Virus record (IMG/VR): IMGVR_UViG_3300020379_000310
Reading direction: 5' to 3' (one strand)
Length of the DNA: 64,000 nt
Origin: an uncultured virus (IMG/VR IMGVR_UViG_3300020379_000310)
Taxonomy: Duplodnaviria; Heunggongvirae; Uroviricota; Caudoviricetes
Shown: one piece after another, positions 1 to 64,000 of the stretch
How positions within the stretch are numbered: position 1 is the stretch's first letter
Layout: each line of letters begins with the position of its first letter
The notes under the pieces: model-generated
The model's database searches: none
What the model saw: only the letters and a program-made list of their open reading frames with translations
Told to the model about the DNA's origin: nothing
Made by a program: the position numbers and the translations under genes

Positions 1-25
1 ACCTCGCCCACATGTTTATAAAATT

Positions 26-445
26 ATGCCTGACCAATTTGAATATGAAAAAAATTATGAATCTTTTAAAAAAGATTATATTGAAAAAGCAAAGAAAATA
101 TATTATACCTTGAGAGAAGATATAAACGCTCAAATTGAATCCAATATGTACGCAAGTGTAACAGCTGACTGGCACCCACATGGTGTCGGTTGGAATGAAC
201 TTGCTAGTGAGGAGGAACAGGAAAAAGGAAAAAAATTTTGGGGAGAAGGTAGTGGTAATATAAAAACTTTATTTAAAAACCTTGAATGGCAAAGAAACAT
301 ATACAAAGAGTTTGGTGGAGAACTGGTCTGGTTAGAAAATAGGAATTACAACCCCAGAAGTATGGGCAAGTATCGTAGAAGGAGTGATTATACTCCAGAC
401 AAGTTTAATTATGACATTAATGTAAGGGAGATGTTTTATGAGTGA
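26..445 (+). CDS. hypothetical protein (possibly 5'-truncated by the window edge)
   Basis: 139 aa ORF overlapping the start of the next gene; no recognisable motif. Confidence 0.55.
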   Translation: MPDQFEYEKNYESFKKDYIEKAKKIYYTLREDINAQIESNMYASVTADWHPHGVGWNELASEEEQEKGKKFWGEGSGNIKTLFKNLEWQRNIYKEFGGELVWLENRNYNPRSMGKYRRRSDYTPDKFNYDINVREMFYE

Positions 446-1664
446 AACATTTTGTCCTTTACCTTGGAATCATTTAGCAACTCATCCACATGGGATATGT
501 ACTTTATGTTGTGAGTCAAATCAAGAAGAGGGTCAGTCTCAAGCATTTAATGAAACAAACAATAAATCATTTAGAAAGTTTTTGACATTACAGGATGTAA
601 GTGATTTTTCTGAAATTACTAATTCTGACAGTTTTAGTAAAGTTAGATTACAAATGTTAAATGGTGAAAAACCTGTTGAATGTAGTAAGTGCTGGGAAGC
701 AGAAAGTGTAGGTAATAAAAGTAAACGATATTATGAAAGTCGCCGTTTGCCTATGACTTTGAAAGAGGCAAAAGAAATAACGAATGATGATGGAACTTTA
801 AAGGAGGTCAATTATGAATTTGTGGAATTGCGTCTTGGCAACCATTGTAATGTTCAGTGCCGGACTTGCAATCCTTACTCGTCTTCTAGGTGGTTAAAGG
901 ATTGGGATAACATATATCCAGAAAGAAGAGCGCTTCCAGAATTCACGCGAAAAAGTAGTTTTAACTGGCCATTGGAAGAAGAGTTCTGGGAAAAACTTAT
1001 TGATAGGTGTAACGAACTACGATTGTTGTATATCAATGGTGGTGAACCCTTTCTTATAGACAAACATTTTAATTTTCTACAAACTCTAGTTGATAAAGGA
1101 ATATCAAAGAATGTAGAAATAGTTTATTCTACTAACTGTACCATTATTAATCACACATATGAAGATATATGGAAGGAGTTTAAAAAGGTACAGTTTATGT
1201 TGTCTATTGATTGTGTCGGTGAAAGGAACGAGTATATTAGAACTTATACCGCGTGGTCTAAAGTATTAGAGTTTGTTGATTGGATGAAAGATATTACAAG
1301 TAAGAATGATAACCTAGATTATAACATACTTCAAACTGTATCTACATATAATATATTTTATATACCAGAGTTCTATAAGTATTTTGATGGCGAACATATA
1401 AGTCATAACTTTGTAAAAGACCCCTCTCAGTATGACCCACTAATTTTACCACAAGTCATACAACAAAAGATTTTAGATAAGTTGTCTGGTTGTGGGGGAT
1501 ATGATGTTGTCAAAAACTATTTTAACATAGAAGGTATATCATATACTGACTTGGATTTAATGAAATCGTTTTTTCAAAAAACAGGTGCCATGGATGTTAC
1601 AAAGAAAACATCTTTTAAGAAAACCTTTCCAGAATTTTATGAGTTAATTAAAGATTATGAGTGA
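438..1664 (+). CDS. radical SAM protein with N-terminal SPASM/Twitch-like Cys-rich domain
   Basis: CNVQCRTC (CxxxCxxC), GGEP motif; N-terminal CPLPW...LCC...CSKCW. Confidence 0.9.
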   Translation: MSETFCPLPWNHLATHPHGICTLCCESNQEEGQSQAFNETNNKSFRKFLTLQDVSDFSEITNSDSFSKVRLQMLNGEKPVECSKCWEAESVGNKSKRYYESRRLPMTLKEAKEITNDDGTLKEVNYEFVELRLGNHCNVQCRTCNPYSSSRWLKDWDNIYPERRALPEFTRKSSFNWPLEEEFWEKLIDRCNELRLLYINGGEPFLIDKHFNFLQTLVDKGISKNVEIVYSTNCTIINHTYEDIWKEFKKVQFMLSIDCVGERNEYIRTYTAWSKVLEFVDWMKDITSKNDNLDYNILQTVSTYNIFYIPEFYKYFDGEHISHNFVKDPSQYDPLILPQVIQQKILDKLSGCGGYDVVKNYFNIEGISYTDLDLMKSFFQKTGAMDVTKKTSFKKTFPEFYELIKDYE

Positions 1665-2916
1665 TAAGAAAAATCTATGTATGTTGCCGTGGGTTCATCT
1701 ACACACATGGCCTAATGGAACAGTATATCCTTGTTGTGTTACTCCCATGAATTACAAAGCAGGAAACTTAAACGATAATACTTTAGAAGAGGTATATAAC
1801 AGTGACTTGATGAAAGACATTCGTGTCAAGATGATAAACGAAGAAAGACACGATGCATGTTCTAGGTGTTGGTTACAGGAAGACCAAGGCGGTATGTCAA
1901 TGAGACATAGAGCAAATAAAAGTTGGACGGAATACGAACACATGATTGATGATACTAAAGAAGATGGTACAGTGGAAGAAATGAAACTGCCATACTGGGA
2001 CTTTAGGTTTTCTAATATCTGTAATTTTAAATGTCGTAGTTGTGGGCCTCAATTGAGTACTGGTTGGTACACAGATGTAAAAAAGATTTCTGTTATAGAA
2101 ACTGGTAAACCAACATTACCAAACGATATACCAAAGGGAAATAAATTTGATTTGTGGGAACAGATAGAACCACACTTTGAATCTGTAGAGGAAATATATT
2201 TTGCTGGTGGTGAACCCCTTATAATGGAAGAACACTATCGCATATTAAAAAAACTAGACGCGATGGGAAAACACGATGTCTTGTTAAGATATAATACAAA
2301 CTTCAGTGAAATGAGATATAAAGATTTGCATGTACTAGAATTCTGGCCAAAATTTAAAAATGTAGAGGTTGGTGCTAGTATAGATGGGATGCAAGAACAA
2401 GGTGAATTTATTCGTAGTGGATTTAACTGGGAACAGTTCAAAGAAAACAGAAACAGGATGAAAGAAACATGTTCTCATGTAAACTTTTATGTTAGTTCTA
2501 CTATTAGTATTCAAAATGCATATCATGTAGTACCATTCCATCACGCGCTTGTAGACGGTGGGTATATTGACAGTTACAACTCTTTTAATGTTAATATCGT
2601 AACAGAACCGCCTTGGCTTGATACTAGAATATTACCAGACCATCACAAACAAAAACTTGTTGAAGTATATAATACTCATATTGATTTTCTTTCAGATAAA
2701 AATGCGTGGGCAACAAAACAGGGGTTTGAGGGGTTACGAAATCATGTTTCATCTGAATTAGACCCAAATACATCTTCATCTGGAAATCATTATCCAAGAA
2801 AACCAGAAGGATTGAGACAACTATTTAAATATAAAATGGAACAACTAGACGAAATAAGAAAAGAAAGTTTCTCAGAAACATTTCCAGAACTTGAGGATTT
2901 ATACGATGCCGTTTAA
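1657..2916 (+). CDS. radical SAM protein with N-terminal SPASM/Twitch-like domain
   Basis: CNFKCRSC, FAGGEPL; N-terminal CMLPW...YPCC...CSRCW. Confidence 0.9.
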   Translation: MSDKKNLCMLPWVHLHTWPNGTVYPCCVTPMNYKAGNLNDNTLEEVYNSDLMKDIRVKMINEERHDACSRCWLQEDQGGMSMRHRANKSWTEYEHMIDDTKEDGTVEEMKLPYWDFRFSNICNFKCRSCGPQLSTGWYTDVKKISVIETGKPTLPNDIPKGNKFDLWEQIEPHFESVEEIYFAGGEPLIMEEHYRILKKLDAMGKHDVLLRYNTNFSEMRYKDLHVLEFWPKFKNVEVGASIDGMQEQGEFIRSGFNWEQFKENRNRMKETCSHVNFYVSSTISIQNAYHVVPFHHALVDGGYIDSYNSFNVNIVTEPPWLDTRILPDHHKQKLVEVYNTHIDFLSDKNAWATKQGFEGLRNHVSSELDPNTSSSGNHYPRKPEGLRQLFKYKMEQLDEIRKESFSETFPELEDLYDAV

Positions 2917-4033
2917 AGAAAATGATAGACCTCGAAAAGAAGATAGGGTTTTTAAGACAGGTGTGGGTCATTGTAAGGATGCGGTGATTACATTAAGATT
3001 GAGAAATAGTAGAAATAATGATGTGTCACCATTGAACATAAAAATTAAATTAGATGATAATGATGCCGTTCAGTTATGGTATCAAAGATTTAAACACGAA
3101 CTAAAAAGTAATGCCTTTTTAAGAAAAGAACATGTATTCATGGGAGAAAGTACTTTGGATACAGAGGAGATGATTGAAAAAGTAAACTCCACCTTAGACC
3201 ACATATCAAAGTTTGACTTTGTTGCTGAACAATGGTCTCGGTGGCAAGACTTTGTAAAAGCAGACCAGACAAATGTAATTAATCAACCCCTAACAAAAAA
3301 CCCAGAAATATCTGAAAGATTATCAATAGAAGATTTTGCAGACGGCAACGATAATGAAAGAATGAATGTTGTTCATAATTATTTTCCATTGTTGTCAGGC
3401 CCAGCAGATAAAACTACTGCTCATTTATATGTTGCACCACCAGATGTTCAGGCTAGTATTTGTAGATTAAATTTAGAAGTTCACGAACTCCATACTACAC
3501 TACAGAATGATGAACAGGCAGACTTTAATATGCATGTTAATGTTTCTTGGCAAAGAGCGCCAAAGAAATTACCTGTATTACCAGAATCTTTTGACGATTT
3601 GTTTACCAAGTATACTAAGTTTGGGGATGTACTACTTGGATATCCTCAGATTGGAAAGACTCATATAGAAGCATACGCGGAAGAGGACGAAGAGCTAGAA
3701 GATGAACATGTAGAACCTATCAAATATCTTTCTGGTGATATGTTGATAAAATTTTCTACAGACCAACACGAAAACTGGGTAGAGGGATTTGATAACTGGT
3801 TAATAGAACAGGGATTAGACCCAGAAGATAAAACAGGTAGATATGGATATGCTAAGTTGGGAACAGTCGTAGATGTTGACTTAGATTTTGTACAAGAAGA
3901 AATATCTGGTAAGTATGATGATATTGATAGAATAATTGTGGTAGATAAAGAAGAACACCTTGACCATGAGTTTCCTTATAGCAGACACGATGATGACTAT
4001 GAAACTAAATTCTTGAGGTATTTACATGACTAG
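2906..4033 (+). CDS. hypothetical acidic protein
   Basis: Long ORF within the operon; ATG at 2906 preceded by GAGGA (ORF track starts at 2891). Confidence 0.7.
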   Translation: MPFKENDRPRKEDRVFKTGVGHCKDAVITLRLRNSRNNDVSPLNIKIKLDDNDAVQLWYQRFKHELKSNAFLRKEHVFMGESTLDTEEMIEKVNSTLDHISKFDFVAEQWSRWQDFVKADQTNVINQPLTKNPEISERLSIEDFADGNDNERMNVVHNYFPLLSGPADKTTAHLYVAPPDVQASICRLNLEVHELHTTLQNDEQADFNMHVNVSWQRAPKKLPVLPESFDDLFTKYTKFGDVLLGYPQIGKTHIEAYAEEDEELEDEHVEPIKYLSGDMLIKFSTDQHENWVEGFDNWLIEQGLDPEDKTGRYGYAKLGTVVDVDLDFVQEEISGKYDDIDRIIVVDKEEHLDHEFPYSRHDDDYETKFLRYLHD

Positions 4034-4574
4034 AATAAGCAGTGCGGATATAAGGGGTTTAGGAAATTGGAACTTTGACGAATATGTAGGGATGTTACCA
4101 GAAGAAGGAAATTTATTAGAAATAGGTTCGTTGTTTGGTAAGTCTGCTGTTTGTTGGGCTGAAACATTTGAGAGATATAATAAAAATTGGAACATACACG
4201 CGGTAGACTTGTTTGCTGGTTTTGCTGCTGGTGGAGGCATTTGGTCTAGTGCCAAACAAAGGATTAATCCAGACCCAGAATTTCATTGTACAGCTAAAGA
4301 ACATTTAGAAGAGTTCAAACGCAACACATCTTCATGGGATAACATTACATGGCAAAGAACCAATCATATCGGATATATTCCAAAACAAAAACCAGATGCA
4401 CTATTTTATGATGGTGACCATTCTTACATAGGTATGAAAGATACTATGAAAAACCTGTGGGATATAGAGTTTATATTTGTGGATGATTGTCATATGCCAG
4501 AGACAGTTAAAGTATTGGAAGAACTTGGAAGACCCTTTGAAATAAAACATGGAATGGCGGTCATCAATGGATAA
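4026..4574 (+). CDS. class I SAM-dependent methyltransferase (Methyltransf_24-like)
   Basis: LEIGSLFGKS motif I, VDLF, FYDGDHSY, VDD. Confidence 0.8.
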   Translation: MTRISSADIRGLGNWNFDEYVGMLPEEGNLLEIGSLFGKSAVCWAETFERYNKNWNIHAVDLFAGFAAGGGIWSSAKQRINPDPEFHCTAKEHLEEFKRNTSSWDNITWQRTNHIGYIPKQKPDALFYDGDHSYIGMKDTMKNLWDIEFIFVDDCHMPETVKVLEELGRPFEIKHGMAVING

Positions 4575-5748
4575 ACTTTGCGTATTGCCTTGGGTTCATA
4601 CAGAGTTCACTACAGATGGAACTGCTAATCCATGTTGTTTGTATAAAGGAGACCCAATGGGCAACTTGAAAGAAGAAAACTTTCTTGATGTTTGGAATGG
4701 GGACTCTTACACAAACCTAAGAAAAGAATTCCTTGATGGAAAGAAACCAGAAGGTTGTGCTATGTGTTGGGAAGGTGAAGATGCTGGATACCAATCTAAA
4801 AGACTTCAAGACAATAAACGATTTGAGAGACAACTAAAAGAAATAAAAGAACAACAAAACTTTATTGCAACTGATACTCCGAAATATCTTGATTTAAAGT
4901 TTGGTACTCTATGTAATTTAAAATGCAGAACATGTGGTAGTATAAACAGTTCAAAATGGCAAACAGATGAGAAAAAACTATACGGTAGAATATTAAACAA
5001 AAAAGACCCTCTGTGGATTATTAAAAACCCAAATGTGTGGGACGAACTTTTTGAGATTATGCATACGGTAGAACAAATGGACTTCACTGGTGGTGAACCA
5101 TTTATGATAGAAGAACATTTTGAGTTGTTGCGTAGAACAGTCGAGGCAGGACACGCGGAACACATATCTTTACATTATAACACAAACGGAACTATTCGTC
5201 CACCACAAAAAATATTTGACTTGTGGAAAGAGTTCAAGTCTTGTGAAGTGATGTTTAGTATTGATGGAATATTCAAGAAATTTGAATATATCAGACACCC
5301 AGCAAAATGGGATGAAGCGTGGGATAACTATAACTACTTTAAATCACTTGATTGGATGTATGTTCAAGTATGTCATACAGTCAGTCTTTATAATGTATAT
5401 TACCTAGATGAGTTTATAGACTTGTTTGGTAGAGAAAACATATACCTTAATCTTTTACACTTTCCTAGACAGTATTGTATTAGAAATATGCCAGATGTGT
5501 GTAAAGAAAAGGTTGCAGATAAACTTATAAATATTCCAGACATAAATGATATTATATTGTTTATGAATCAAGAAGCTCAATATGACAAACTTGATATGGG
5601 ATTTTTGCATGTTACAGAAAAATTGGACAACATAAGAAATGAAAGTTACAGTGAAATTTTTTCAGAATTTTATAGGATATTGATAGATGGCGGAATCGGA
5701 AGAGAACCTTGGACAGTTAAACAATACTTTAGACCGATTGGTGAATGA
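4567..5748 (+). CDS. radical SAM protein with N-terminal SPASM/Twitch-like domain
   Basis: CNLKCRTC, FTGGEPF; N-terminal CVLPW...PCC...CAMCW. Confidence 0.9.
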   Translation: MDKLCVLPWVHTEFTTDGTANPCCLYKGDPMGNLKEENFLDVWNGDSYTNLRKEFLDGKKPEGCAMCWEGEDAGYQSKRLQDNKRFERQLKEIKEQQNFIATDTPKYLDLKFGTLCNLKCRTCGSINSSKWQTDEKKLYGRILNKKDPLWIIKNPNVWDELFEIMHTVEQMDFTGGEPFMIEEHFELLRRTVEAGHAEHISLHYNTNGTIRPPQKIFDLWKEFKSCEVMFSIDGIFKKFEYIRHPAKWDEAWDNYNYFKSLDWMYVQVCHTVSLYNVYYLDEFIDLFGRENIYLNLLHFPRQYCIRNMPDVCKEKVADKLINIPDINDIILFMNQEAQYDKLDMGFLHVTEKLDNIRNESYSEIFSEFYRILIDGGIGREPWTVKQYFRPIGE

Positions 5749-7420
5749 AGTAGCTGGTCTTAGAACAGAATTATCAGACCTCAAAAAAATCAATACCAGT
5801 ATACTTAAAAAACAACTGGTGAGAAAGGGTGCCGACAAAGAACGACATTTTTTGTGGTTCGATAAAAAAAGCACCCAGACAAACCACGAAGATATTTTTA
5901 CTTGGCCTCAGGCAAACTGTTCTTCTAAACCCAACCATGTTTTTGCTAATATGACTAAAATACTGTCACATTACCAAACTGTAGATTGGCCTTACCAAGT
6001 TGGTGATATTGAAAACTTTGACCCAAACGGTGTTCACAAAAATACTAACAATCTTTATTTCTTAGAACCACAATATGTGTTTTCAAATCACTGGGAACAT
6101 TGCATCGACTTTATTCCAGAAACAGTTCAATGTTGGTTGCGAGAAAGAAAAATGGCTTTGGTCTTGTGGTTTCCCCACGAAGGATTTAATTTTGAACAGG
6201 GATTTAACCAAACAGGATGGTTGCAACATTTTCACAACCAAATGCGAAAACATCAATTGGAAAACATTATAAGTTACTTTGTGTTTGGTGATTTACAAGC
6301 ATCTCCAAACTATGATACCTTTTTAAGAACGCGACAAGGTAATGAAAGAACTCAATTTGAATTCACAAAAGTTATTTCTTATGATTTTTTTCACCAAGAT
6401 TACTGGAGAGATTATTCAGAAAGAACTGGTATCTATATAAGCAGAACCCAAAATCCAAAATACATGCATCAAAACACATATGGTCATTCTGAGTTAACAG
6501 GAGGATTTACTGACCATGTTATAGTTCCATATGAAGACTTTGATAGTGGTCTTTTACAAAGAGAAGCAGACCAAATAGTACAAGACTCATATGAAAGATG
6601 TAAACCAGATGAAGTATTAGTAGGGATTCCAAATGGGATTGAGAAAACCGCAGACCTTGTTTGTTTGAATGCTAGACCAAGGTCTCATAGACCAGTGCTG
6701 GTTGCTGAATTACATAGAATAGGATATAACAATGACAATTCATACATAAGTTTTCTTGGTAGAGAAGATATGATAAACCAACATGGAGACCTTATTAGTG
6801 GTCAACCTATTTGGAAAGAACATATGTTTAGGAATTTGGACATCACAGCATTTACTGCTAGAAAAGATAATCCTTTTATTGCTTTTCTTTCTCATGATAT
6901 TCAGATAGAACACACTTATAGATTTTGGAAAGAAAGAACTATGGTTCTCGCGGATAAACCAGTGTTGGAAGTACATGATGATGACAGACTAGTAACATCA
7001 CAGATGTATAAAGATTCATTTTTTAGTTTAGTATCAGAGACATTGTTTGGAGAAGATAAAGAATCACTTTTTATAACAGAAAAAACATTTAAACCAATAG
7101 CATATCGACATCCATTCATGATTGTTGGTAGCATGGGTACTTTAAGACATCTAAGATATCTTGGATATGAAACATTCCCAGAAATGTTTGATGAAAGTTA
7201 TGACCAAGAATATGACCCGAAAAAAAGGTTTTCTATTATATTAAGAAACTTGGAAAACTGGTATCAATTGACAAGAGATGAAAAAATTCACAAATATAAC
7301 GCTGTAAGAGAAAAATTAAAACACAACTTTGAACTATTTAAAAACTCAAGAGGTCAATTTGAGAAAGACACAGCTTATGTACTAAGTCAATTGTCATCTC
7401 ACAGTGTAGAGTTAATCTAA
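5687..7420 (+). CDS. putative glycosyltransferase (GT10/GT-B-like C-terminal domain)
   Basis: C-terminal FSLVSET...FITEKTFKPI...HPF...LGYETF resembles the nucleotide-sugar binding E..TEK motif of GT10-like enzymes. Confidence 0.55.
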   Translation: MAESEENLGQLNNTLDRLVNEVAGLRTELSDLKKINTSILKKQLVRKGADKERHFLWFDKKSTQTNHEDIFTWPQANCSSKPNHVFANMTKILSHYQTVDWPYQVGDIENFDPNGVHKNTNNLYFLEPQYVFSNHWEHCIDFIPETVQCWLRERKMALVLWFPHEGFNFEQGFNQTGWLQHFHNQMRKHQLENIISYFVFGDLQASPNYDTFLRTRQGNERTQFEFTKVISYDFFHQDYWRDYSERTGIYISRTQNPKYMHQNTYGHSELTGGFTDHVIVPYEDFDSGLLQREADQIVQDSYERCKPDEVLVGIPNGIEKTADLVCLNARPRSHRPVLVAELHRIGYNNDNSYISFLGREDMINQHGDLISGQPIWKEHMFRNLDITAFTARKDNPFIAFLSHDIQIEHTYRFWKERTMVLADKPVLEVHDDDRLVTSQMYKDSFFSLVSETLFGEDKESLFITEKTFKPIAYRHPFMIVGSMGTLRHLRYLGYETFPEMFDESYDQEYDPKKRFSIILRNLENWYQLTRDEKIHKYNAVREKLKHNFELFKNSRGQFEKDTAYVLSQLSSHSVELI

Positions 7421-8475
7421 TGTACTGGTCAAAAGGTGCCGACATAGAAAGTGGTAGTCAGCATATAACCGAATTTGAAAGAATTTTTGTTAAAGAACTA
7501 ATTGCTCAAAAACCAGATGACTGTGTTCTGGTAAATTCTACATGGTTTTCAAAACCAGAAAATGTTGATGATTTAAAAAAATGGTTTGAAGATAAAGGAA
7601 CCCCCAGAGTTTTATTGTACTCTGGTATGGATTGGGAAAACTCCACATGCACAGAATCTACGCAAGAAGCACATAGGTTCCTTAATAAGAATTATGAAGT
7701 CATCAATATAGGGAATACTGGCACTGGGCATTACTTTAGTTTTTGGTTGTCCTTTATACACAAACACCTTGACACCTTCTTTGATTCGTGTTATACTGAG
7801 ACACCTAACATAAAAAAATACTTTATGTGTTTGAATCATCAACCGCATAAACACAGAATAGAGTTTTTAAATCTTTTAAATGAAGTTGGTATATTTCACC
7901 ACGGTACTATTTCTGCTATAGTTCCTCATGAAGAATATAAGTTTGATAATCCTATCATTCTAAAAGAAAATAGACCACCTCATATTATGGAAAAATCTCA
8001 TGAATGGGAAAGAGTAAATGACAACCACTTAGCAAACGATATCATTTCTCTGGGAGACCCTAATTATTGGAACTCTCATTTTTGCACCGTTGTAACTGAA
8101 AGTGTAATGCATAGTGATGTGTTTTTAAGTGAGAAAACATTTAAACCATTAATAGGACTTAGACCTTTTATTATTTTGGGTGATGGTTTGTTATATGATA
8201 AACTAAAGGAACTCAAGTTTGATACATTTGAAGACTTGTTTCCAAGAATACATCGTAAAGGACAGGATGAATATTGGCGGGGAGGCGTACCTCGTGGTGA
8301 ACGCATAAATAACGCCGTACAAGACCTTAAAAATCTTCAAGAGAAATATGGAGATGCGGATAGTCTAATTACCTTATATAATAGTTTGGAAGATAGATTG
8401 ATGTATAATAGACAGAGGGTTTTAGAGGTGATTAATGAGAATTACAACAAGATAATGGAGATTAGTAAGTTATGA
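7420..8475 (+). CDS. putative glycosyltransferase (paralogue of the upstream gene)
   Basis: VVTES...FLSEKTFKPL..LRPF...LKFDTF, the same motif as 5687..7420. Confidence 0.55.
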   Translation: MYWSKGADIESGSQHITEFERIFVKELIAQKPDDCVLVNSTWFSKPENVDDLKKWFEDKGTPRVLLYSGMDWENSTCTESTQEAHRFLNKNYEVINIGNTGTGHYFSFWLSFIHKHLDTFFDSCYTETPNIKKYFMCLNHQPHKHRIEFLNLLNEVGIFHHGTISAIVPHEEYKFDNPIILKENRPPHIMEKSHEWERVNDNHLANDIISLGDPNYWNSHFCTVVTESVMHSDVFLSEKTFKPLIGLRPFIILGDGLLYDKLKELKFDTFEDLFPRIHRKGQDEYWRGGVPRGERINNAVQDLKNLQEKYGDADSLITLYNSLEDRLMYNRQRVLEVINENYNKIMEISKL

Positions 8476-9713
8476 CCAACATTGCATTTATTGGATTTGG
8501 TAAATTAGGTAAACCTTGTGCTGAGGTGATTGCACAAAAAGGACACGATGTAAGCGTTTATGATACACGCGAAGTAGAAAGTGAATATTGTAATGTTAAA
8601 GATACAATAGAAGAGGTTGTCAAAGATAGGTTATTTGTATTTGTCGCAGTGCCAACACCACATGACCCATTGTACGATGGTTCAGAACCTACTTACCACT
8701 TACCACCAAAAGATTTTAATTACGATACTGTTAAAGAAGTAATCGCAGAAGCAAATAAACATATGAATGAGAAGCAGACATTGGTTCTTATTAGTACTGT
8801 ATTGCCTGGCACTGTAAGAAGAGAGTTTGTTCCTTTGATTACAAATACTAAGTTTGTTTACAATCCTTACTTGATTGCCATGGGTACAGTCGCGTGGGAT
8901 ATGGTAAACCCAGAGATGGTAATGATAGGTACAGAAAACGGAGAAGAATCATTAGAGGCACATAGTCTCATACACTTCTATAATGAGATAATGGAAAACG
9001 AACCGCGTTATGAAGTTGGTACTTGGGATGAGTGCGAATGTATTAAGGTGTTTTATAATACCTTTATTAGTGCAAAGATTGGTCTTGTAAACATGATACA
9101 AGATGTCGCAGAGAGACAGGGTAATATTAATGTAGATGTAGTGACAAATGCATTAAAAAAGAGTTCTCAGAGAATCATGGGCCCCAGTTATATGAAATCT
9201 GGTATGGGTGATGGTGGCGCGTGTCATCCAAGAGATAATATTGCACTTAGATACATGGCACAAGAATTAAATCTGGGGTATGACTTGTTTGCTGAAATAA
9301 TGAAGGCACGAGACATACAAGCAGAAAACATGGCAGTTGCCATTTTAAAACACGGAAACAAAATTGGATTTACATCTGACTCATATAAACCAGATGTTCC
9401 ATATACAAATGGTAGTTACAGTTTATTAGTTCAACACTATGTAAAAGAACACGGTGGATTCATTACACCTCTTTCTTCACACCCACATGTGATTGTAAAG
9501 GTACATGAGTCTGATTTAATAGAAACCGATTTTGAGGGGGTCGTATTTGACCCTTGGAGAAGTCATGTGGGAATAAATGTTGTACACTACGGAGATACGA
9601 GAAATGAAAATTTTAAAGAAAAACAAGCAACTGCACAAATTCATGAAAGCTGGGAGACTAACCAAAGTGATCAAGAAGGCGTTGTCGGAGGTCTCGGAGA
9701 AGACCGACTCTAA
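8472..9713 (+). CDS. UDP-glucose/GDP-mannose 6-dehydrogenase family protein
   Basis: GFGKLG Rossmann motif, VAVPTP, STVLPGT, GGACHPRD catalytic Cys, YKPD. Confidence 0.9.
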   Translation: MTNIAFIGFGKLGKPCAEVIAQKGHDVSVYDTREVESEYCNVKDTIEEVVKDRLFVFVAVPTPHDPLYDGSEPTYHLPPKDFNYDTVKEVIAEANKHMNEKQTLVLISTVLPGTVRREFVPLITNTKFVYNPYLIAMGTVAWDMVNPEMVMIGTENGEESLEAHSLIHFYNEIMENEPRYEVGTWDECECIKVFYNTFISAKIGLVNMIQDVAERQGNINVDVVTNALKKSSQRIMGPSYMKSGMGDGGACHPRDNIALRYMAQELNLGYDLFAEIMKARDIQAENMAVAILKHGNKIGFTSDSYKPDVPYTNGSYSLLVQHYVKEHGGFITPLSSHPHVIVKVHESDLIETDFEGVVFDPWRSHVGINVVHYGDTRNENFKEKQATAQIHESWETNQSDQEGVVGGLGEDRL

Positions 9714-9816
9714 ACTTGATGAGATAGAACAGAAAGAAAAAGAAAAAAGAAAAGAAGAAGAACTCCAACGCAAGTTAGAAAAAATGCGAGAGAGAGACCC
9801 CTTTATCTATGACTAG
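9604..9816 (+). CDS. small basic coiled-coil hypothetical protein
   Basis: ATG at 9604 after GGAG; ends ...RERDPFIYD and overlaps the start of the next gene. Confidence 0.55.
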   Translation: MKILKKNKQLHKFMKAGRLTKVIKKALSEVSEKTDSKLDEIEQKEKEKRKEEELQRKLEKMRERDPFIYD

Positions 9817-10618
9817 ACTTGTATCATATGGATGTTCCCACACATCTGGTGCAGAATTAGCTGACCATATAATGTTGGGGACAGACATAGAAACTGTTGA
9901 TAAATTAAAATCTAAGTATATCTCTGGTGGTGATACACTACCGCAAGCTTGGAAAAAGATTTGGAACGAATATGGATTTTCGTTTGACCCATATTCTAAA
10001 TTTGATGACATCTTTCGTAGTGTTTCTTTAAAAGAAATACCGCATTTAGAAAGTGGCGAAGATATATGTAGGTCTTTAACATGGGTAAGGTATCTAACAG
10101 AACTACGCGGTCACACACATTACATAAATCGTGGTTTCGGTGGTGGTTCATTAGAACTTTGTGTATATTTATTGGAAGGGGATATCATTGACGGTATTAT
10201 TGATACTAAGAAAGATGAAGTTATTGTTCAAGTTCCTCACCCCTATAGATGGATGGAATTAGATTTTGATGGGATGCACAAAACCATTACTCCATATGAA
10301 CAGGGAAACTACTGGAATATGACTTGGAGTTATTATCAATTATTAAGACACATAAAACTGTTGGGTGTTAAATATTTTTTTATAGAAAAACCAACATGGA
10401 GACTAAGAAATGAAATTAGGGAAGACAATTTTGACTCTTGGTCAAATCCAATCAATAACAATAAAGAACTTTTTGCGAAATATTGGAACTGGATTGGAGA
10501 AAATGCGATACCAACAAACGATGAGTTTTACTCTAATCCTAAACACGCTGGTGAACATTACTACACAGAAACACATAAATTGATGGCGGAAAATTTAAAT
10601 GATAAGTTGGGGAATTAG
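9809..10618 (+). CDS. SGNH/GDSL-like hydrolase or acyltransferase
   Basis: N-terminal GCSHT (GxS block I), NRGFGGGS, C-terminal His. Confidence 0.55.
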   Translation: MTRLVSYGCSHTSGAELADHIMLGTDIETVDKLKSKYISGGDTLPQAWKKIWNEYGFSFDPYSKFDDIFRSVSLKEIPHLESGEDICRSLTWVRYLTELRGHTHYINRGFGGGSLELCVYLLEGDIIDGIIDTKKDEVIVQVPHPYRWMELDFDGMHKTITPYEQGNYWNMTWSYYQLLRHIKLLGVKYFFIEKPTWRLRNEIREDNFDSWSNPINNNKELFAKYWNWIGENAIPTNDEFYSNPKHAGEHYYTETHKLMAENLNDKLGN

Positions 10619-12014
10619 TGCTTGTACACATGACGCTTCTTTAGCGGTTGTTAAAGATGATGAGATATTGTTTGCCTCTCATAGTGAGAGATTTAGCGGT
10701 ATAAAAAATGATGCATTTCTTAATCCAGAAATTATCACGGAAGCAAAAAAGTATGGTGAACCAGATTATGTTTATTGGTATGAAAATCCTTGGTTAAAAT
10801 GGACAAGAAAAAAATACGCGGGCCAACAAAGACCGTGGGTAAGTCCTAAAAAATATTTAAAACACTTTGGAATAAAATCACCCTATTACACTACTCATCA
10901 CAAAGCACATGCAGCTGCTGGGTATTACACTTCACCTTTTAATAGTTCAGCAGTATTGGTTATTGATGCTATTGGTGAATGGACTACTACATCCATATGG
11001 AAAAATATGGAGAAAAAGTGGGCTGTAAGTTATCCAATATCATTGGGATTGTTTTATTCCGCGATGACAGATAGAATTGGATTGAAGGCAAATGAAGATG
11101 AGTATATTCTTATGGGTATGTCTGCTTATGGTGACCCAGATAGATTTTATGATGATATTAAAGAATTACTAAAAGAGAATCTACATAGAGGTTGTAAGTG
11201 GTGGAATCCACTATTAGAGGAAAAAGATTATTTCGATGTTGCAGCTGCCACGCAAAAAATATACGAAGAACATTTTGTGTCATTGTTAGAAAGAACTAAA
11301 GATATGACAGGTGAGGACAATCTAGTTTTCATGGGTGGTTGTGCTTTAAACTGTTTGGCAAATAGACTTATTCCAGAGCATTTTGATAATCATTGGATAA
11401 TGCCGAATCCTGGCGATGCTGGTTCTTCTATTGGTGCGATTGCATCTAAAGAATGTATAAAACTAAAATGGAAAACTCCGTATCTTGGATATAATATAGA
11501 AGGTAAATATCCAACCAACAATCTATTCAAAGAATTGGTAGATAATAAGATAGTTGGTGTTGCAAATGGGAGAGCTGAATTTGGCCCAAGAGCATTGGGT
11601 AATAGAAGTTTACTTGCAGACCCGAAAGGTTCTAAAATGAAAGACCTTGTAAACAAAATAAAAAAGAGACAAGAGTTTAGACCATTTGCACCTGTAGTAT
11701 TAGAATCAGAAGTACACAAGTACTTTGATGTACCAAGGGGATTCCAATCACCATATATGCAACATGTGGTTAAATGTAAACAACCAGAAGACTTTCCTGC
11801 CATCGTACATAAAGATGGAACTAGTAGGGTACAAACAGTAAACTCAGAACAACACAGTGGATTATCTCAGTTATTAAGAAAATGGAAAAAACACAGTGGA
11901 CACCCGATACTACTAAATACCAGCTTAAATATTAAAGGTGAACCAATCGTCAACGATGAAAAAGACGCGATTAGGTTTGAAAAAAAGTATGGAGTTAAAG
12001 TGTGCGTGAGATAA
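10599..12014 (+). CDS. carbamoyltransferase (NodU/CmcH/TobZ family)
   Basis: HDAS, HHKAHAA, IDAIGE, GGCALNC, PGDAG, EFGPRALGNRS, FRPFAP, LLNTSLN motifs. Confidence 0.95.
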   Translation: MISWGISACTHDASLAVVKDDEILFASHSERFSGIKNDAFLNPEIITEAKKYGEPDYVYWYENPWLKWTRKKYAGQQRPWVSPKKYLKHFGIKSPYYTTHHKAHAAAGYYTSPFNSSAVLVIDAIGEWTTTSIWKNMEKKWAVSYPISLGLFYSAMTDRIGLKANEDEYILMGMSAYGDPDRFYDDIKELLKENLHRGCKWWNPLLEEKDYFDVAAATQKIYEEHFVSLLERTKDMTGEDNLVFMGGCALNCLANRLIPEHFDNHWIMPNPGDAGSSIGAIASKECIKLKWKTPYLGYNIEGKYPTNNLFKELVDNKIVGVANGRAEFGPRALGNRSLLADPKGSKMKDLVNKIKKRQEFRPFAPVVLESEVHKYFDVPRGFQSPYMQHVVKCKQPEDFPAIVHKDGTSRVQTVNSEQHSGLSQLLRKWKKHSGHPILLNTSLNIKGEPIVNDEKDAIRFEKKYGVKVCVR

Positions 12015-12868
12015 AGTATCATAATGGTGAAACTATAAAGGTAGACGGACTACATTTCTATGGGTGTTCTTATATTGCTGGACAGGAATTACTTGACCAT
12101 GAAATACCAGACCCAATGGCTATTGACCCCAAAAAGATGATGCAACAAAAAGGAGAAAGAGTCGAAGATTATTATAGACGAAAACTTGCTAGAGAACTTC
12201 TTTTTAAGAAAAAACTAAAACTAGAAAAACAATTATCTTGGTGTCAACACACAACCAACCAACTAAAACTTAGATGTTATAATCATGGTATACATGGATG
12301 TTCTACTACTCAAGTAAAAGGTTTGATTGTACAACATATGGTACAGGGGTTATACGAAAAACAAAAAGAAGCTATAGTAGTTGGTATGACAGGATTTGCC
12401 AGAGAAATGGTTTTTGCAGAAGATGAATCTATGCTTTTAAATGTTGGAACACTTGGTTCCGCGAGAAGTTTAGTTGTAGCCACTCATGCAGAAAGAAGAG
12501 GTGATGTTCAGTTTGCAAAAAAATATATGATGCTCAAGGGTGTCTACACTTTGTTTTGGAATTATCTCCATGAAATCTACAATATAATCAATATTTGTGA
12601 ACTAAATGATATCAAGTTATATCTTATCCCCATGTTAGACCCATTTGACCCCAAATGGTATAAAAAACAATATGACATTGGTTTTAAAGAGGGTGAATTC
12701 AATGAACAAATTCAATTTATAGAATCAAAAATAGATAAGTATATAATAGAAGATATGAAGTTAGACCCTTTGGGGGCTAACATTATAAAACGATTACCAA
12801 GGGGCCATCCGTGTGCCGAAAGTCACGAAAAGTACGGTACTAAGGTTGGTGAGAAGTTAACAATATGA
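12002..12868 (+). CDS. SGNH/GDSL-like hydrolase or acyltransferase
   Basis: FYGCSY, NHGIHGCS, C-terminal GHP...H; paralogue of 9809..10618. Confidence 0.55.
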   Translation: MREIKYHNGETIKVDGLHFYGCSYIAGQELLDHEIPDPMAIDPKKMMQQKGERVEDYYRRKLARELLFKKKLKLEKQLSWCQHTTNQLKLRCYNHGIHGCSTTQVKGLIVQHMVQGLYEKQKEAIVVGMTGFAREMVFAEDESMLLNVGTLGSARSLVVATHAERRGDVQFAKKYMMLKGVYTLFWNYLHEIYNIINICELNDIKLYLIPMLDPFDPKWYKKQYDIGFKEGEFNEQIQFIESKIDKYIIEDMKLDPLGANIIKRLPRGHPCAESHEKYGTKVGEKLTI

Positions 12869-13161
12869 ACAACATATTAAGGTTCCCCACCAAAAAGAAA
12901 TGGGAACCTACTGGATACAGAATTAATCTATACACAGAAGAGGATATCTATATAGTTCTCTTATGCCTCAACATCTCCGATGATTTAGATGAACCGCAAA
13001 AATGGGTCAGAAAAGACCTACGCACCTTAGAGCCAGAATTTGTTATAGACAAGATGTCTACATGTCTTGACAATCAAGTTTTGTCCGATGCTTGTAAAAA
13101 AAGTATTAGGAAAATAATCAATTCAATAGAGGTCATACCTCTGTCAGCACTACACAATTAA
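12865..13161 (+). CDS. hypothetical protein
   Basis: 98 aa ORF with ATGA overlap. Confidence 0.65.
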   Translation: MNNILRFPTKKKWEPTGYRINLYTEEDIYIVLLCLNISDDLDEPQKWVRKDLRTLEPEFVIDKMSTCLDNQVLSDACKKSIRKIINSIEVIPLSALHN

Positions 13162-18644: not shown

Positions 18645-20174
18645 ATGGCAGAAATTATGGATGGAATTATATTTGGCGGACAATTAGAAGACTTTGCTGG
18701 TTCAATACACAAAGAAGATTCTAAAAACATTTCAATGAGAAGGTCTTCTGGTGGTCACAAGATTGCCACCTTTTTGAGGCAGAATGGTTATGAAATTGAT
18801 GTAGTAGATTATGTCCATCGCTGGAAAATAGAACAACTCAAACAATATCTAAAACCAATCGCAAAGGATTGTAAGTTCTTTGGATTTGGTTCTACATTCT
18901 TTTTAGACAGTCCAGTTGTCAAAGAACTGGTTGCGTGGTTAAAAGAAGAGTATCCTAATGTACCGCGTGTCGCTGGTAGTCAAAATGATAGCATGCGTAG
19001 TTTGGACATGGATTGGTATGTCTATGGTTATGGTGAAAATGCCATGTTAGAACTACTCAAACATTTTGATGGTGGGCCAGAACCCATACACTACAATAAA
19101 GTAATTAACTGTTATGTAAATTACAAATCATTTCCAAAAGAAGATTTAACAGTATCCTATCAAGAAAGAGATTTTGTCAATCCACGCGAAATCATGATGA
19201 TAGAGTTTGCCCGTGGGTGTAAGTTTAAATGTAAGTTTTGTAGTTTCCCGATACTAGGTGTTAAGGGGGATTACTCTCGTACAGCACAAAGCGTATATGA
19301 TGAGATGTCAGAAAACTATGACAAGTGGGGTATAGAACACTATCTTGTTATTGACGAAACATTTAATGATAGTTCAGAGAAAATAGAAAAGTTTGCTAAT
19401 GCAATAGAGAAACTTCCTTTCCAACCAAAGATGACCGCATTTATTCGTGGTGACTTACTTGCTTCGCGTCCTAGAGATTGGGACAATCTAATTAAGATGG
19501 GAATTACATCTCATTTCTATGGTATTGAAAGTATGAACCACAAGGCAGCTAAATCGGTTGGTAAGGGGATGAATACTGGTAGGATACAAGATGGTCTATT
19601 AGAAGTAAAAGAATACTTTCAGACAAATGCTGGATACTACAAGGGTCTAATATCCTTGATTGCTGGTTTGCCTTATGAGACTATTGATAGTTTACGCGAG
19701 ACAGTTAGATGGTGTTCTGAATACTGGTCTGACCAGAGTTATCATATGAACATATTGATGATTAAGTTATTAGGTAAACCATCTCTCAATCATAACTCAG
19801 AATTTGATTTGAATTGGAAAGATTACGGTTACAGGGAGTCCCAGTTCCCCAAAGATGATATAAAGTGGGATATGAGTATCAATCCGTTCTATAAGTTCCT
19901 CTATGAGTATGTGGCGACCTCTGGCGAGTACATTATGTGGGAAAATGACCATACTAACATGTATGATTGTTTTAAATTCTGCGTAGAAGAGTTTAGTCAA
20001 GCTAAGTTGAAGAACGCATTAGACCCATTTATGTATGATAAGTTCTTTATTGACCCAACTGTAAAGTGGAGTGATTTTGCTACTGAGACACATATGGAAA
20101 GGAGAGAATCCCATATCTTAGAACATGTGGATGGATATATTCAGTCTAAACTTAATCTTGCATCAAGAGTTTAG
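18645..20174 (+). CDS. radical SAM protein, class B (cobalamin-dependent methyltransferase)-like architecture
   Basis: EFARGCKFKCKFC, DETFN, GIES, GLPYET; long N-terminal domain with GYGE. Confidence 0.8.
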   Translation: MAEIMDGIIFGGQLEDFAGSIHKEDSKNISMRRSSGGHKIATFLRQNGYEIDVVDYVHRWKIEQLKQYLKPIAKDCKFFGFGSTFFLDSPVVKELVAWLKEEYPNVPRVAGSQNDSMRSLDMDWYVYGYGENAMLELLKHFDGGPEPIHYNKVINCYVNYKSFPKEDLTVSYQERDFVNPREIMMIEFARGCKFKCKFCSFPILGVKGDYSRTAQSVYDEMSENYDKWGIEHYLVIDETFNDSSEKIEKFANAIEKLPFQPKMTAFIRGDLLASRPRDWDNLIKMGITSHFYGIESMNHKAAKSVGKGMNTGRIQDGLLEVKEYFQTNAGYYKGLISLIAGLPYETIDSLRETVRWCSEYWSDQSYHMNILMIKLLGKPSLNHNSEFDLNWKDYGYRESQFPKDDIKWDMSINPFYKFLYEYVATSGEYIMWENDHTNMYDCFKFCVEEFSQAKLKNALDPFMYDKFFIDPTVKWSDFATETHMERRESHILEHVDGYIQSKLNLASRV

Positions 20175-48082: not shown

Positions 48083-49057
48083 ATGGCAGGGCCAGTTACA
48101 CTTAAAGCAGGGTCATATCCGGCGCCCGTTGGGGGATTACAAGGTCTCAGAGAATTATCAGCCACTGAGATTAAAGACCAAGTAGCCGGCGTGCTTACTT
48201 TGAAATTTGCCGCTGACACGGATGGTTCTGGGACAGGAGAACTAAATGTTGTTACTGGTGGTTCTGCTGGTAGTGATGAAATCGGAACATTTACAAACAG
48301 AGAGAGAACTGAATCTGTAGGTGACCACCCTGCTGGTGGTGGAACTACGGATACTATCTACCGATTTAATCAACCAGTTGCTGCTGTAAGTGAGTCTGGA
48401 CAAATTAATCCTATGCGATGGACAGGAACAGCTTTAGAACAATCAACAGATACAGAATTAGACACTGAAGTATTAGATTTAGTTTTAACTGCAATGGCTG
48501 CTGAAGACGCAAATACAGTCGGACAATATAAAATTGGAACATCTTCACCTTCTGGTGGAACATGGACTTCAAGATATACTATTACAGAGACACAAGTTGA
48601 CGGAACAGATGTAAACTACTACCTCTATCAAAAAACTGCACCAACTACAGATGCTGGAACAGACCAAAATTTACTTTTAAAACTTGGTGACGAAGGTCAA
48701 CCAAACGAAATGTCAACTGCAAACTTACAAACATTAGTGCCTGCAATGAGAAACAGAATTGTTTCTAGTGGAGTAGGAACTTATCTACTTCAAACAGGTT
48801 CACCATCTGCTACTGGAACATGGGTACAGATGGGGTCAACGATGACTGACCAATTAAAAGACATCTCATCACAGAACTATGCTGGAGACTACACAGGGTC
48901 ATACACTGGGTACTATGACCGATTCTTTGCTGGATTCTTAAATGGTGCATACGCTGGTTCATATTCTGGTACATATACTGGATATTATGCTGGTAACACT
49001 GTACAATCAACAAGTTCCACGCAAGAAACAAAACAGCTGTTTATTAGAACCGCTTAA
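48083..49057 (+). CDS. putative virion structural protein with a C-terminal YxG repeat
   Basis: AAGGAG RBS; Thr/Gly-rich; NYAGDYTGSYTGYY...AYAGSYSGTYTGYYAG. Confidence 0.65.
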   Translation: MAGPVTLKAGSYPAPVGGLQGLRELSATEIKDQVAGVLTLKFAADTDGSGTGELNVVTGGSAGSDEIGTFTNRERTESVGDHPAGGGTTDTIYRFNQPVAAVSESGQINPMRWTGTALEQSTDTELDTEVLDLVLTAMAAEDANTVGQYKIGTSSPSGGTWTSRYTITETQVDGTDVNYYLYQKTAPTTDAGTDQNLLLKLGDEGQPNEMSTANLQTLVPAMRNRIVSSGVGTYLLQTGSPSATGTWVQMGSTMTDQLKDISSQNYAGDYTGSYTGYYDRFFAGFLNGAYAGSYSGTYTGYYAGNTVQSTSSTQETKQLFIRTA

Positions 49058-59056: not shown

Positions 59057-59060
59057 GTCT

Positions 59061-59068: not shown

Positions 59069-59103
59069 GTCAAAGTATTAAAACTATTTAAATAGGGGTT
59101 CAC

Positions 59104-60060: not shown

Positions 60061-60064
60061 ATAA

Positions 60065-61812: not shown

Positions 61813-61814
61813 CT

Positions 61815-62258: not shown

Positions 62259-63873
62259 GGCATCATATCACGGTAATCCCAACCTAAAATCAATTGGATA
62301 TGAACATGATTTTTCTAAGGAACAATTAGAAGAATTAATTAAATGTGAAAGTGACCCAGTTTATTTTATAGAGAACTACTGTCAAATTGTAACCTTGGAT
62401 AAAGGTCTACAACCTTTTAAACTGTACGACTGTCAGAAAAGAAAGGTAGATTTCATTATGAATAATCGAAAGACTATTCTTATGGAAGGTAGACAGCAAG
62501 GTAAAACAGTAACAGCAGCTGCGTGTATATTACATTATTCTATATTCAATGCAGATAAAAACATTGCTATCATGGCGAACAAAACTGCTGCTGCTCGTGA
62601 AGTATTAAACAGATATCAAACTATGTATGAGAACCTTCCTGTCTGGATGCAACAGGGTGTCAAGACATGGAACAAGGGGGATGTGGACTTAGAGAATGGT
62701 TCTCGCGTGTTTACATCTGCAACCACATCATCTGGTATTCGGGGTAAATCAGTTAACTGGTTGTACATTGATGAGGCTGCAATCATACCAAATAACATAG
62801 CAGAAGAGTTTTTTGCATCTGTATATCCTACTATCTCTGCTGGTGAGACCACGAAGATTCTTCTTACATCTACACCACTGGGATACAATCACTTCTGGAA
62901 GTTCTGGAATGAATCAGAAAAGGGTACGAATGGATTTCAAAATATGTTCATTCCCCATACTGAAATCCCAGGCCGAGATGATAACTGGGTAGAAGAACAG
63001 TTCAAGTTATTAGGTGAAGTGAAGTTTAACCAAGAGGTGTTGTGTGACTTCTTGGGGTCAACGAATACTTTGATTAGTGGTAAATCTCTTGCTACTATGT
63101 CATCAACAGACCCAGTATATAAGAAGGATGGTCTGGATATTTATGAAGAACCTCAAGAAGATAAATATTATGTGATAGCGGCTGACACTGCGAGAGGAAT
63201 AGGGGGAGATTTTTCTGCCTTTATTGTTATCGACATAACAGCGATGCCGTTTAAAGTTGTTGGTAAGTATAGAGATAATAAAGTTTCACCTTTATTGTAT
63301 CCAGACTTCATAGGAAAAGTTGCAAGAGACTACAACGATGCTTATGTTTTACTTGAGACAAATGATATAGGACAACAAGTTGTAGATATACTTCACCAAG
63401 AACTAGAGTATGAGAACATTTTTAGTACAGTACAGGAAAAAACTAAACAATATGTTTCGCCTGGCTTCGGAAAACAAAGTACTCTAGGGGTGCGAACATC
63501 AAAAGCAGTAAAAAGACAGGGATGTTTGGCACTAAAAAGTTTGATTGAGGAACAGAAGTTCTTAATATTTGATGCTGAGTGTATAAGTGAACTGTCAACT
63601 TTTGTTGAGAGGAGTGGTACATTTGCTGCTGATGAAGGATACCACGATGACCTTGCCATGTGTATGGTACTATTTGCATGGTTATCAACCAATACATTCT
63701 TTAAGGATTTGACTAATGTCGATATTCGTGACAATTTATACAATTCACAAATGAGAATGATAGAAAATGATTTAACACCATTTGGGCTTGTGGTAGACGG
63801 ACATGAACCAGAAGCAGAAGTTATGGATGGTGACTACTGGATGTTTGGTGATGAGAAAGAAAAATTTTTATAA
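62245..63873 (+). CDS. gp17: terminase large subunit gp17
   Basis: GNPNLK, RQQGKT, YIDEAA, STPLG, DTARG, HDDLAM. Confidence 0.97.
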   Translation: MNQIEASYHGNPNLKSIGYEHDFSKEQLEELIKCESDPVYFIENYCQIVTLDKGLQPFKLYDCQKRKVDFIMNNRKTILMEGRQQGKTVTAAACILHYSIFNADKNIAIMANKTAAAREVLNRYQTMYENLPVWMQQGVKTWNKGDVDLENGSRVFTSATTSSGIRGKSVNWLYIDEAAIIPNNIAEEFFASVYPTISAGETTKILLTSTPLGYNHFWKFWNESEKGTNGFQNMFIPHTEIPGRDDNWVEEQFKLLGEVKFNQEVLCDFLGSTNTLISGKSLATMSSTDPVYKKDGLDIYEEPQEDKYYVIAADTARGIGGDFSAFIVIDITAMPFKVVGKYRDNKVSPLLYPDFIGKVARDYNDAYVLLETNDIGQQVVDILHQELEYENIFSTVQEKTKQYVSPGFGKQSTLGVRTSKAVKRQGCLALKSLIEEQKFLIFDAECISELSTFVERSGTFAADEGYHDDLAMCMVLFAWLSTNTFFKDLTNVDIRDNLYNSQMRMIENDLTPFGLVVDGHEPEAEVMDGDYWMFGDEKEKFL

Positions 63874-63876
63874 ATA
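63869..63876 (+). promoter_or_regulatory. T4-type late promoter for gp18
   Basis: TATAAATA overlapping the gp17 stop codon. Confidence 0.75.
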
Positions 63877-63937
63877 ATTGTCAAGGAATAACTATTTAGT
63901 CAAGATAGATTAAAAACGAAATACGAAGGAGAACAAA

Positions 63938-64000
63938 ATGGCTTTCCAATTATCGCCTGGCGTCTTAACGAAAGAACAAGACCTTACTAATGTTGTCCCC
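63938..64000 (+). CDS. gp18: tail sheath protein gp18 (5' end, truncated by the window)
   Basis: AAGGAG RBS; MAFQLSPGVLTKEQDLTNVVP; follows gp17. Confidence 0.88.
   Translation, partial: MAFQLSPGVLTKEQDLTNVVP

Follow-up and report, generated by a model that had tools for sequence, protein, structure and literature searches.

Restriction sites kept only at GCY in the closed genome of a T4-like ocean phage without a recognisable writer enzyme

The window and its restriction sites

The stretch analysed here, called the window, comprises 64,000 nucleotides of an uncultured tailed virus (Caudoviricetes; IMG/VR record IMGVR_UViG_3300020379_000310), and the subject of this report is a footprint in which short restriction sites are kept only when they overlap the trinucleotide GCY or, on the other strand, RGC. 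The record itself, G000, holds 161,406 bases, of which positions 1-63642 correspond to window 359-64000. The junction between its two ends lies inside the window and is bridged without a break by contigs of four public runs. The genome is closed and in effect complete, and the CheckV completeness estimate is 91%. A Pfam scan of the 202 called genes, which cover 95% of the genome, identifies a T4-like myovirus (gp23, gp20, gp18, gp32, gp41, gp43, gp44/62, gp45, UvsX/Y/W and RegA). Its major capsid protein places the OM43 phage Melnitz (70% identity) and the Pelagibacter phage HTVC008M (68%) as the nearest isolates, and a megablast search of 12 kb of the window against a phage collection gave no match. 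The lineage was detected in public runs from at least 10 studies and is that of an ocean phage. The features needed for the site counts are the following.

Window 1..64000, no strand: window-wide footprint; CCGG, CCWGG, CCATGG, CCTAGG, CTTAAG, CTGCAG, CTCGAG and GCGC kept only when overlapping GCY/RGC
Window 344..359, no strand: genome junction; window 1-344 is G000 161063-161406, 14 bases are missing from the record, and window 359 is G000 base 1
Window 48119..48122, no strand: example of a singly flanked CCGG, tatCCGGcgc
Window 40630..40634, no strand: example of a doubly flanked CCWGG, gcgCCTGGcgc (GCCWGGC)

Throughout, a site is called flanked when a G stands 5' or a C stands 3' beside it, and the codon null consists of 200 synonymous-codon shuffles, Markov nulls being used as well. 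An earlier note on this DNA had claimed that CCGG and CCWGG occur only beside GGC/GCC, and that GGNCC is present only as GGCCC or GGGCC, with GGACC and GGTCC absent. Exact counting bore out both statements. In the window, all 12 CCGG sites read GCCGG or CCGGC and all 30 CCWGG sites read GCCWGG or CCWGGC, at positions agreeing with the earlier ones to within 1 base, while the 36 GGNCC sites are all GGSCC. GGWCC, ACGT, TCTAGA, TTCGAA, GGTACC, GTGCAC and TGCGCA have a window count of zero. In the whole genome, 29/29 CCGG (7 of them doubly) and 65/65 CCWGG (33 doubly) are flanked, and GGWCC is again absent.

The comparison of exact counts with Markov and codon-shuffled nulls, proposed earlier as a check, gave a clear result. 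Unflanked CCGG, CCWGG and GGWCC are all absent, against codon-shuffle expectations of 88.4, 89.7 and 103.8, respectively, and the unflanked count is zero for seven site types in total (expected 88, 90, 18, 6.7, 23, 19 and 7). Chance and codon bias are ruled out by these nulls. Flanked sites lie near expectation, with 29 CCGG observed against 43.0 expected and 65 CCWGG against 38.6; summed, 122 flanked sites were observed against a neutral expectation of about 129. No flank effect was seen in the control words CATG (137 flanked against 140.9 expected), CTAG, CAATTG, CATATG and CTATAG.

The depletion is achieved by synonymous recoding. As had been noticed before, Pro-Gly and Gly-Pro pairs are coded by GC-rich glycine codons: 67 of the 74 Pro-Gly pairs use GGC for glycine (GGC overall 11%), and all 70 Gly-Pro pairs use GGC or GGG (overall 20%). 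When CCW-GGN lacks a preceding G, the glycine codon is GGC in 23/23 cases. In addition, double flanks are in excess among CCWGG sites, the 33 observed comparing with 4.2-4.5 expected, and CCGG sites with a single flank and A or T on the other side number 9 against 33.5 expected. Flanked CTGCAG is scarce as well (5 against 20.4). Such a shortage of several single-flank classes is in line with a partial counter-selection against sites that carry the modification on just one strand.

The GCY motif and its distribution among relatives

Further site types of G000 follow the same pattern. CCATGG (10/10), CCTAGG (5/5) and CCGCGG (1/1) always carry a 5' G or a 3' C, and CTTAAG (6/6), CTGCAG (5/5) and CTCGAG (2/2) are flanked through an AGC/GCT junction, not GGC. 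When the C...G sites are pooled, 123/123 carry a flank, the baseline being 0.27 (p = 5e-71), and at least nine site types obey one GCY rule. In every informative C...G site the second base is Y, so that a preceding G makes the first cytosine of the site part of a GCY. GCGC with purines at both 3' flanks is absent (0 against 23.8 expected) and stands at expectation with any pyrimidine flank (37 against 42.3 when the flank is T only), while GCATGC has 5' R or 3' Y in 5/5 cases. Sites with only YGC/GCR inside are purged, as none was observed of TGCGCA (33 expected), GTGCAC (19), TCGCGA (17) or ACGCGT (9). Palindromic hexamers containing RGC/GCY fall below an observed-to-expected ratio of 0.3 in 0 of 12 cases, against 28 of the 52 other hexamers (28 of all 64), and GGCC is unpurged (157 against 154-171 expected). 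Several tetramers are strongly depleted too. The other strong depletions include ACGT (0 against 186), TCTAGA (0 against 66), TTCGAA (0 against 47) and GGTACC (0 against 36), and GATC is reduced to 34 against 475-592 expected, with no flank rule.

From the AGC/GCT exemption, the flank dependence of GCGC and the purging of YGC/GCR sites it therefore follows that the exempting motif is 5'-GCY-3', RGC on the other strand. The motif is read as an evolutionary footprint, that is, from the pattern of site survival and not from modified-base data. Plain GpC is ruled out by the counts of zero for TGCGCA, GTGCAC, ACGCGT and TCGCGA, and RGCY by the exemption of TGC|TTAAG and CGC|TTAAG junctions. Adenine modification is ruled out for CCGG and GCGC, which contain no A, and the SAS motif of phage Mu is not protective. 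The earlier proposal of a motif-specific protective modification thus stands in kind, as overlapping sites appear shielded and the rest are purged, while its motif, GGC alone, has to be replaced by GCY/RGC.

A separate observation concerns CGCG, which is over-represented genome-wide (235 against 127 expected). Its palindromic extensions TCGCGA, ACGCGT and GCGCGC are absent and CCGCGG occurs once, and ACGCGA/TCGCGT is four-fold enriched (100 against 25.8).

A phage enzyme system with this specificity has been described. According to a published study, GpC[C/T] is the main target of the phage C5-methyltransferases of clades I and II, whose product is oxidised by a partner TET enzyme (Burke et al. 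2021, PMC8256090). The isolate Melnitz encodes a PF00145 C5-methyltransferase (E = 7e-55) followed directly by a Tet_JBP protein (5208-6194; 43 bits against a cut-off of 34.9), in a cassette annotated only as 'hhaIM' and hypotheticals.

L007:4010-8386 (MZ577097): Melnitz cassette after the DNA polymerase gene; C5-methyltransferase, Tet_JBP dioxygenase, 427-residue protein, P-loop kinase, 99-residue protein

The footprint of Melnitz comprises 103 flanked sites of 105 (CCGG 15/15, CCWGG 68/68, CTGCAG 14/14, GGWCC 0), both exceptions being CCATGG. In total 80 loci with this methyltransferase were found, 65 of them with a TET homologue and 64 beside the DNA polymerase gene. In the 70 IMG/VR loci with a methyltransferase sharing 76-93% identity with that of Melnitz, the flanked sites are 49/54 for CCGG, 127/130 for CCWGG, 39/40 for CCATGG and 137/140 for GCGC.

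The GCY exemption was not seen in T4-like relatives without the cassette. Flanked sites amount to 192/462 in G001, a genome of 100% completeness whose capsid protein is 80% identical to that of G000, to 69/280 in G005 and to 41/130 in G002; CCGG is absent from G005 (109 expected) and CCWGG from G002. In the close relatives of G000 all sites are flanked, namely 103/103 in G007, which shares 85% nucleotide identity with G000, and 56/56 in G006. Of 92 aligned G000 sites, 48 are missing at the orthologous place in G007, and every site is flanked. Because the sites differ between the two genomes while all of them are flanked, the rule is currently maintained, in a lineage without known writers.

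Other flank rules were observed in two further relatives. In the whole record of HTVC008M, GATC (83/83), GANTC (43/43) and GTATAC (14/14) carry a 5' G or 3' C, with p down to 2e-53, and GGCC is purged (22 against 102 expected); a search of this record for PF00145 and PF01555 found neither. In G001 (an IMG/VR record of 171,566 bases), the same flanks accompany GTAC (167/167) and GTCGAC (13/13), and a 3' G accompanies CTGCAG (14/14) and CAGCTG (20/20). No C5-methyltransferase and no Mom were found in G001.

A probable modification and the search for its writer

We consider it probable, at roughly 60%, that the virion DNA of G000 carries a post-replicative, sequence-specific modification at GCY, most likely on cytosine, whose writer is not a recognisable C5-methyltransferase, TET, DpdA or amino-methyltransferase. 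Nucleases directed against about 20 short palindromes, presumably restriction enzymes of the host population, would purge those sites. A site that contains GCY, or gains it by a 5' G or 3' C, would have one base pair modified and would be shielded, persisting at about neutral frequency. Single-flank sites would be modified on one strand and partly counter-selected, and doubly flanked sites would accumulate. The footprint with its motif and statistics, its active upkeep in the lineage and its occurrence in relatives bearing a GCY-type C5-methyltransferase with TET are shown directly, whereas the existence of a chemical modification in G000, its position on cytosine and the role of restriction enzymes as selective force are inferred. 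Shielding at a modified motif combined with purging elsewhere is the explanation with the best fit.

A narrower proposal, that GCY is modified by an enzyme unrelated to known DNA methyltransferases, TET and DpdA, is possible and is put forward tentatively; candidates would be a Mom-subfamily GNAT acting on cytosine, or a radical S-adenosylmethionine (SAM) or atypical SAM enzyme. Furthermore, unrecognised writers specific for various three-base motifs may be common in marine T4-like phages of SAR11- and OM43-type hosts. HTVC008M, in which GATC, GANTC and GTATAC are confined to sites with a 3' C, and G001, in which this applies to GTAC and GTCGAC, are likewise without a recognisable C5-methyltransferase.

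Several observations weigh against a GCY modification of this kind. A six-frame search of G000 with PF00145, PF12851, PF01555, PF02086 and PF01702 was negative, and PF00145 was not found in G006, G007 and three smaller relatives either. AGCT, which contains GCT, is still about two-fold depleted (241 against 525 expected), which means that GCT protects incompletely or that another pressure acts on AGCT. The low number of flanked CTGCAG sites is a further point. Moreover, single-flank CCWGG sites are asymmetric with respect to the A-containing strand, as CCAGGC-only sites number 28 against 19.0 expected and GCCAGG-only sites 4 against 15.1, and CCAGGC stands on the A-containing strand of 61 of the 65 CCWGG sites of G000. 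The same asymmetry is found in G007 (28 CCAGGC-only and 5 GCCAGG-only sites) and G006 (12 and 1); in Melnitz it is weaker (40 and 12), and the loci that bear the methyltransferase show almost none (54 and 44). A simple symmetric GCY model does not predict it. Examples from the window are given below.

Window 29422: aagCCAGGctt
Window 20549: aagCCTGGgtt

For PF00145 no candidate was obtained in six frames of G000 at E <= 1 or in the Pfam scan of the 202 proteins; the positive control, the Melnitz methyltransferase, was found at E = 2e-56. Likewise, TET/JBP (PF12851) gave no match in G000 at E <= 1, and the DNA polymerase gene is directly followed by uvsX. Altogether, no C5-methyltransferase, TET, N6/N4 or Dam-type methyltransferase or TGT/DpdA was found in the closed genome, so that the earlier remark that no dpdA or DNA methyltransferase is visible holds beyond the window for the whole genome. 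A methyltransferase hidden in a missing part is ruled out because the genome is closed. The genes considered as candidates are listed below; no candidate gene could be tied to the footprint.

G000 90193-91014 (L002:13193-14014): Mom homologue between the clamp and clamp-loader genes (PF25680, E = 3.9e-59), with a nucleotidyltransferase-cupin gene downstream
Window 438..13161, + strand: cluster of accessory enzymes, with two of the six radical SAM paralogues of twitch-domain type, Methyltransf_24 protein (4026-4574), UDP-glucose dehydrogenase, carbamoyltransferase, and uncharacterised proteins of 380, 577 and 351 residues
Window 18645..20174, + strand: B12-binding radical SAM methylase-like gene restricted to this lineage (88% identity in G007)
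G000 126703-127374: lineage-specific SAM methyltransferase matching the core of PADLOC mad2 (DNA N6-methyltransferase; MADS Mad2), E = 3e-18

Within the proposed modification at GCY, the Mom-family GNAT could be the writer if it acted on a non-adenine base, a special case that we regard as unlikely. It spans PF25680 in full length (profile positions 2-202 of 202), is 35% identical to Mu Mom and is the sole recognisable DNA-modifying enzyme of G000 (PHROG 'Mom-like'). Four of the 202 proteins are present in Melnitz and absent from HTVC008M, G001 and G005, and Mom is the only enzyme-like one among them, the other three being proteins of 75-90 residues; phylogenetic profiling over seven comparator genomes, a small sample, likewise gave Mom as the only enzyme tracking the rule. 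It is 89-90% conserved in G006 and G007, and a lineage with a Mom 78% identical in the same slot has 6/6 unique sites flanked. In another T4-like lineage (L135-L138, IMG/VR), a 66% identical Mom lies between DNA polymerase and UvsX, the slot of the methyltransferase-TET cassette in Melnitz.

As regards its residues, R111, S124 and R151 are reported as essential in Mu Mom (PMC13219725). Two of these three differ in the G000 protein (R111 to K, R151 to I), while S124, H58, Y59, D149 and Y159 are kept, and the same two replacements with S124 kept are found in the homologues of Melnitz and of Edwardsiella and Psychrobacter phages. On the other side of the balance, Mu Mom modifies adenine in SAS, forming N6-carbamoylmethyl-adenine in a Gly-tRNA-dependent manner (PMC13219725), while CCGG and GCGC contain no adenine. 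SAS-containing sites are purged in G000 (GGWCC 0, GTCGAC 0, GTGCAC 0, and CTGCAG too unless flanked), so either the specificity of this Mom differs or its modification does not block these nucleases. The closest homologues (55% and 53% identical) occur in Edwardsiella and Psychrobacter phages that purge GGCC (4 against 109 and 19 against 93 expected, respectively), and therefore GCY is not shielded there. Finally, the methyltransferase-TET cassette of Melnitz is sufficient alone. A profile search for Mom relatives returned only Mu-like prophages, and this result was not used. The C-terminal ends of the protein read ...SLRGIL in G000 and ...TLEGFF in Melnitz.

Among the remaining genes, no link between the accessory cluster and the footprint could be shown, and its Methyltransf_24 gene was rejected as writer, as G007 has no homologue yet keeps the rule. 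The B12-binding radical SAM methylase-like gene is a speculative writer candidate. The SAM methyltransferase at G000 126703-127374 has DVSG as motif IV, not NPPY, and a PDB sequence search and the Atlas led to generic class I methyltransferases only. It was supposed to hold a cysteine pair, presumably catalytic by analogy with RNA m5C methyltransferase motifs, and this pair proved unconserved among 21 homologues. Searches with the other two small methyltransferases of G000 gave nothing.

Some further observations were made on these genes. The two small SAM methyltransferase genes at L004:15703-17306 (G000 126703-128306) stand out in the comparison with G006: most genes reach 80-97% identity there, these two only 57% and 48%. 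The family of the first, in which the DVSG motif is invariant, occurs widely among marine viral contigs. The six twitch-domain radical SAM paralogues (NF033640, E = 1e-87 to 1e-120) lie at window 438-2916 and, across the junction, at L006:13177-19523, clustered with a small kinase, a 75-residue protein, UDP-glucose dehydrogenases, a carbamoyltransferase and uncharacterised proteins. The 75-residue basic protein (L006:15828-16055; G000 157234-157461) has no assigned family and is 100% identical in G006 and G007 despite 85% genome identity; in Melnitz, a gene with 72% identity to it lies two genes downstream of Mom.

Apart from the question of which enzyme writes it, the existence of a phage modification may be doubted. 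Flank dependence could stem from host nucleases or methyltransferases with longer or flank-sensitive recognition, and the absolute flank rules of relatives without a recognisable methyltransferase (GATC and GANTC in HTVC008M, GTAC in G001) speak for this, since such rules might generally characterise the selective agents that act in these habitats. We nevertheless hold this to be improbable, as at least nine site types share a single GCY rule in G000 and relatives purge the same sites fully whatever the flank (CCGG in G005, CCWGG in G002). In addition, the motif equals the specificity measured for the phage methyltransferase family (PMC8256090) and tracks the presence of that family in 70 loci.

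The earlier note had named as one possibility a 7-deazaguanine, or a similar base, within GGC, inserted as in phage CAjan by a DpdA-like transglycosylase. Overlap with GGC/GCC is indeed seen in most exempt sites, and CAjan modifies G in GA and GGC, blocking HaeIII (PMC7544227). Furthermore, a 214-residue PP-loop protein between the ribonucleotide reductase genes is QueC-like over its last 60 residues (144-206; E = 1.7e-9 in Pfam, 2e-7 in PADLOC). This route is very improbable. TGT/DpdA was not found with PF01702 in six frames, nor among the 96 of 202 proteins covered with PHROGs or the 99 of 202 covered with PADLOC, and FolE, QueD and QueE were not found by Pfam in the 202 proteins. The genome-wide search that had been suggested for dpdA, folE, queD, queE and DNA methyltransferases thus came back empty, queC giving only the partial match. 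GA is unprotected, as seen from GATC (34 against 475, no flank rule), and exemption extends to AGC/GCT junctions and T flanks. Melnitz follows the same rule but lacks the QueC-like gene, which in turn occurs in G001, where the rule is not seen.

It is scarcely credible that the footprint is a relic of a recently lost methyltransferase-TET cassette with flanked sites still undecayed, for although the cassette is absent from a genome with the footprint of its bearers and a 90-residue G000 protein (104610-104882) is homologous to the last, 99-residue Melnitz cassette gene (E = 2e-10), three diverged genomes of the lineage without the cassette obey the rule in 282/282 sites, G000 differs from G007 at 48 of 92 aligned sites with every one flanked, and flanked sites are near neutral expectation (122 against about 129).

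The modification at GCY thus remains our preferred explanation. Conditional site avoidance reads out a phage modification motif from sequence alone, GCY having been derived from the counts independently of PMC8256090. The footprint is an orphan, in that an abundant ocean phage lineage behaves as if GCY-modified without any known writer, which points to an undiscovered DNA-modifying enzyme. Such modifications affect the cloning, digestion and base-calling of marine viral DNA and bear on defence evasion by phages of streamlined bacteria.

Comparison with known systems

The system behaves like the published GpC[C/T] methyltransferase-TET systems, yet falls outside them for lack of their defining enzymes. 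GCY matches the specificity determined for clades I and II of these methyltransferases (PMC8256090), and the cassette-bearing Melnitz and 70 contigs share the footprint. In contrast, G000 and its close relatives have neither methyltransferase nor TET, the genome being closed, and the CCWGG strand asymmetry is far stronger in G000 than in the cassette loci.

The resemblance to the DpdA system of CAjan (PMC7544227) lies in a short-motif modification that shields sites such as those of HaeIII, with an overlap in the GGC part. The differences are that neither DpdA nor a preQ0 pathway was found in G000, that GA is unprotected and that AGC/GCT is protected. With Mu Mom, G000 shares a full-length Mom-family protein with S124, H58, Y59, D149 and Y159 conserved; the G000 homologue differs by K at position 111, I at position 151 and a C-terminal extension, and the footprint cannot stem from adenine, which CCGG and GCGC lack.

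The short-motif methyltransferases of Chlorella viruses offer a further parallel, as their marks of two to four bases containing GC shield many restriction sites at once. M.CviJI, one of these enzymes, has the motif RGCY, which misfits since TGCT and CGCT junctions are exempt in G000. For M.CviPI the motif is GpC (cited in PMC8256090), and this misfits as well, YGC/GCR being purged; G000 encodes none of these enzymes. Lastly, classical restriction-site avoidance in virulent phages is matched in that many palindromes are depleted beyond codon and Markov expectation. The difference is that avoidance in G000 is conditional on a three-base context, with sites that overlap GCY standing at neutral frequency.

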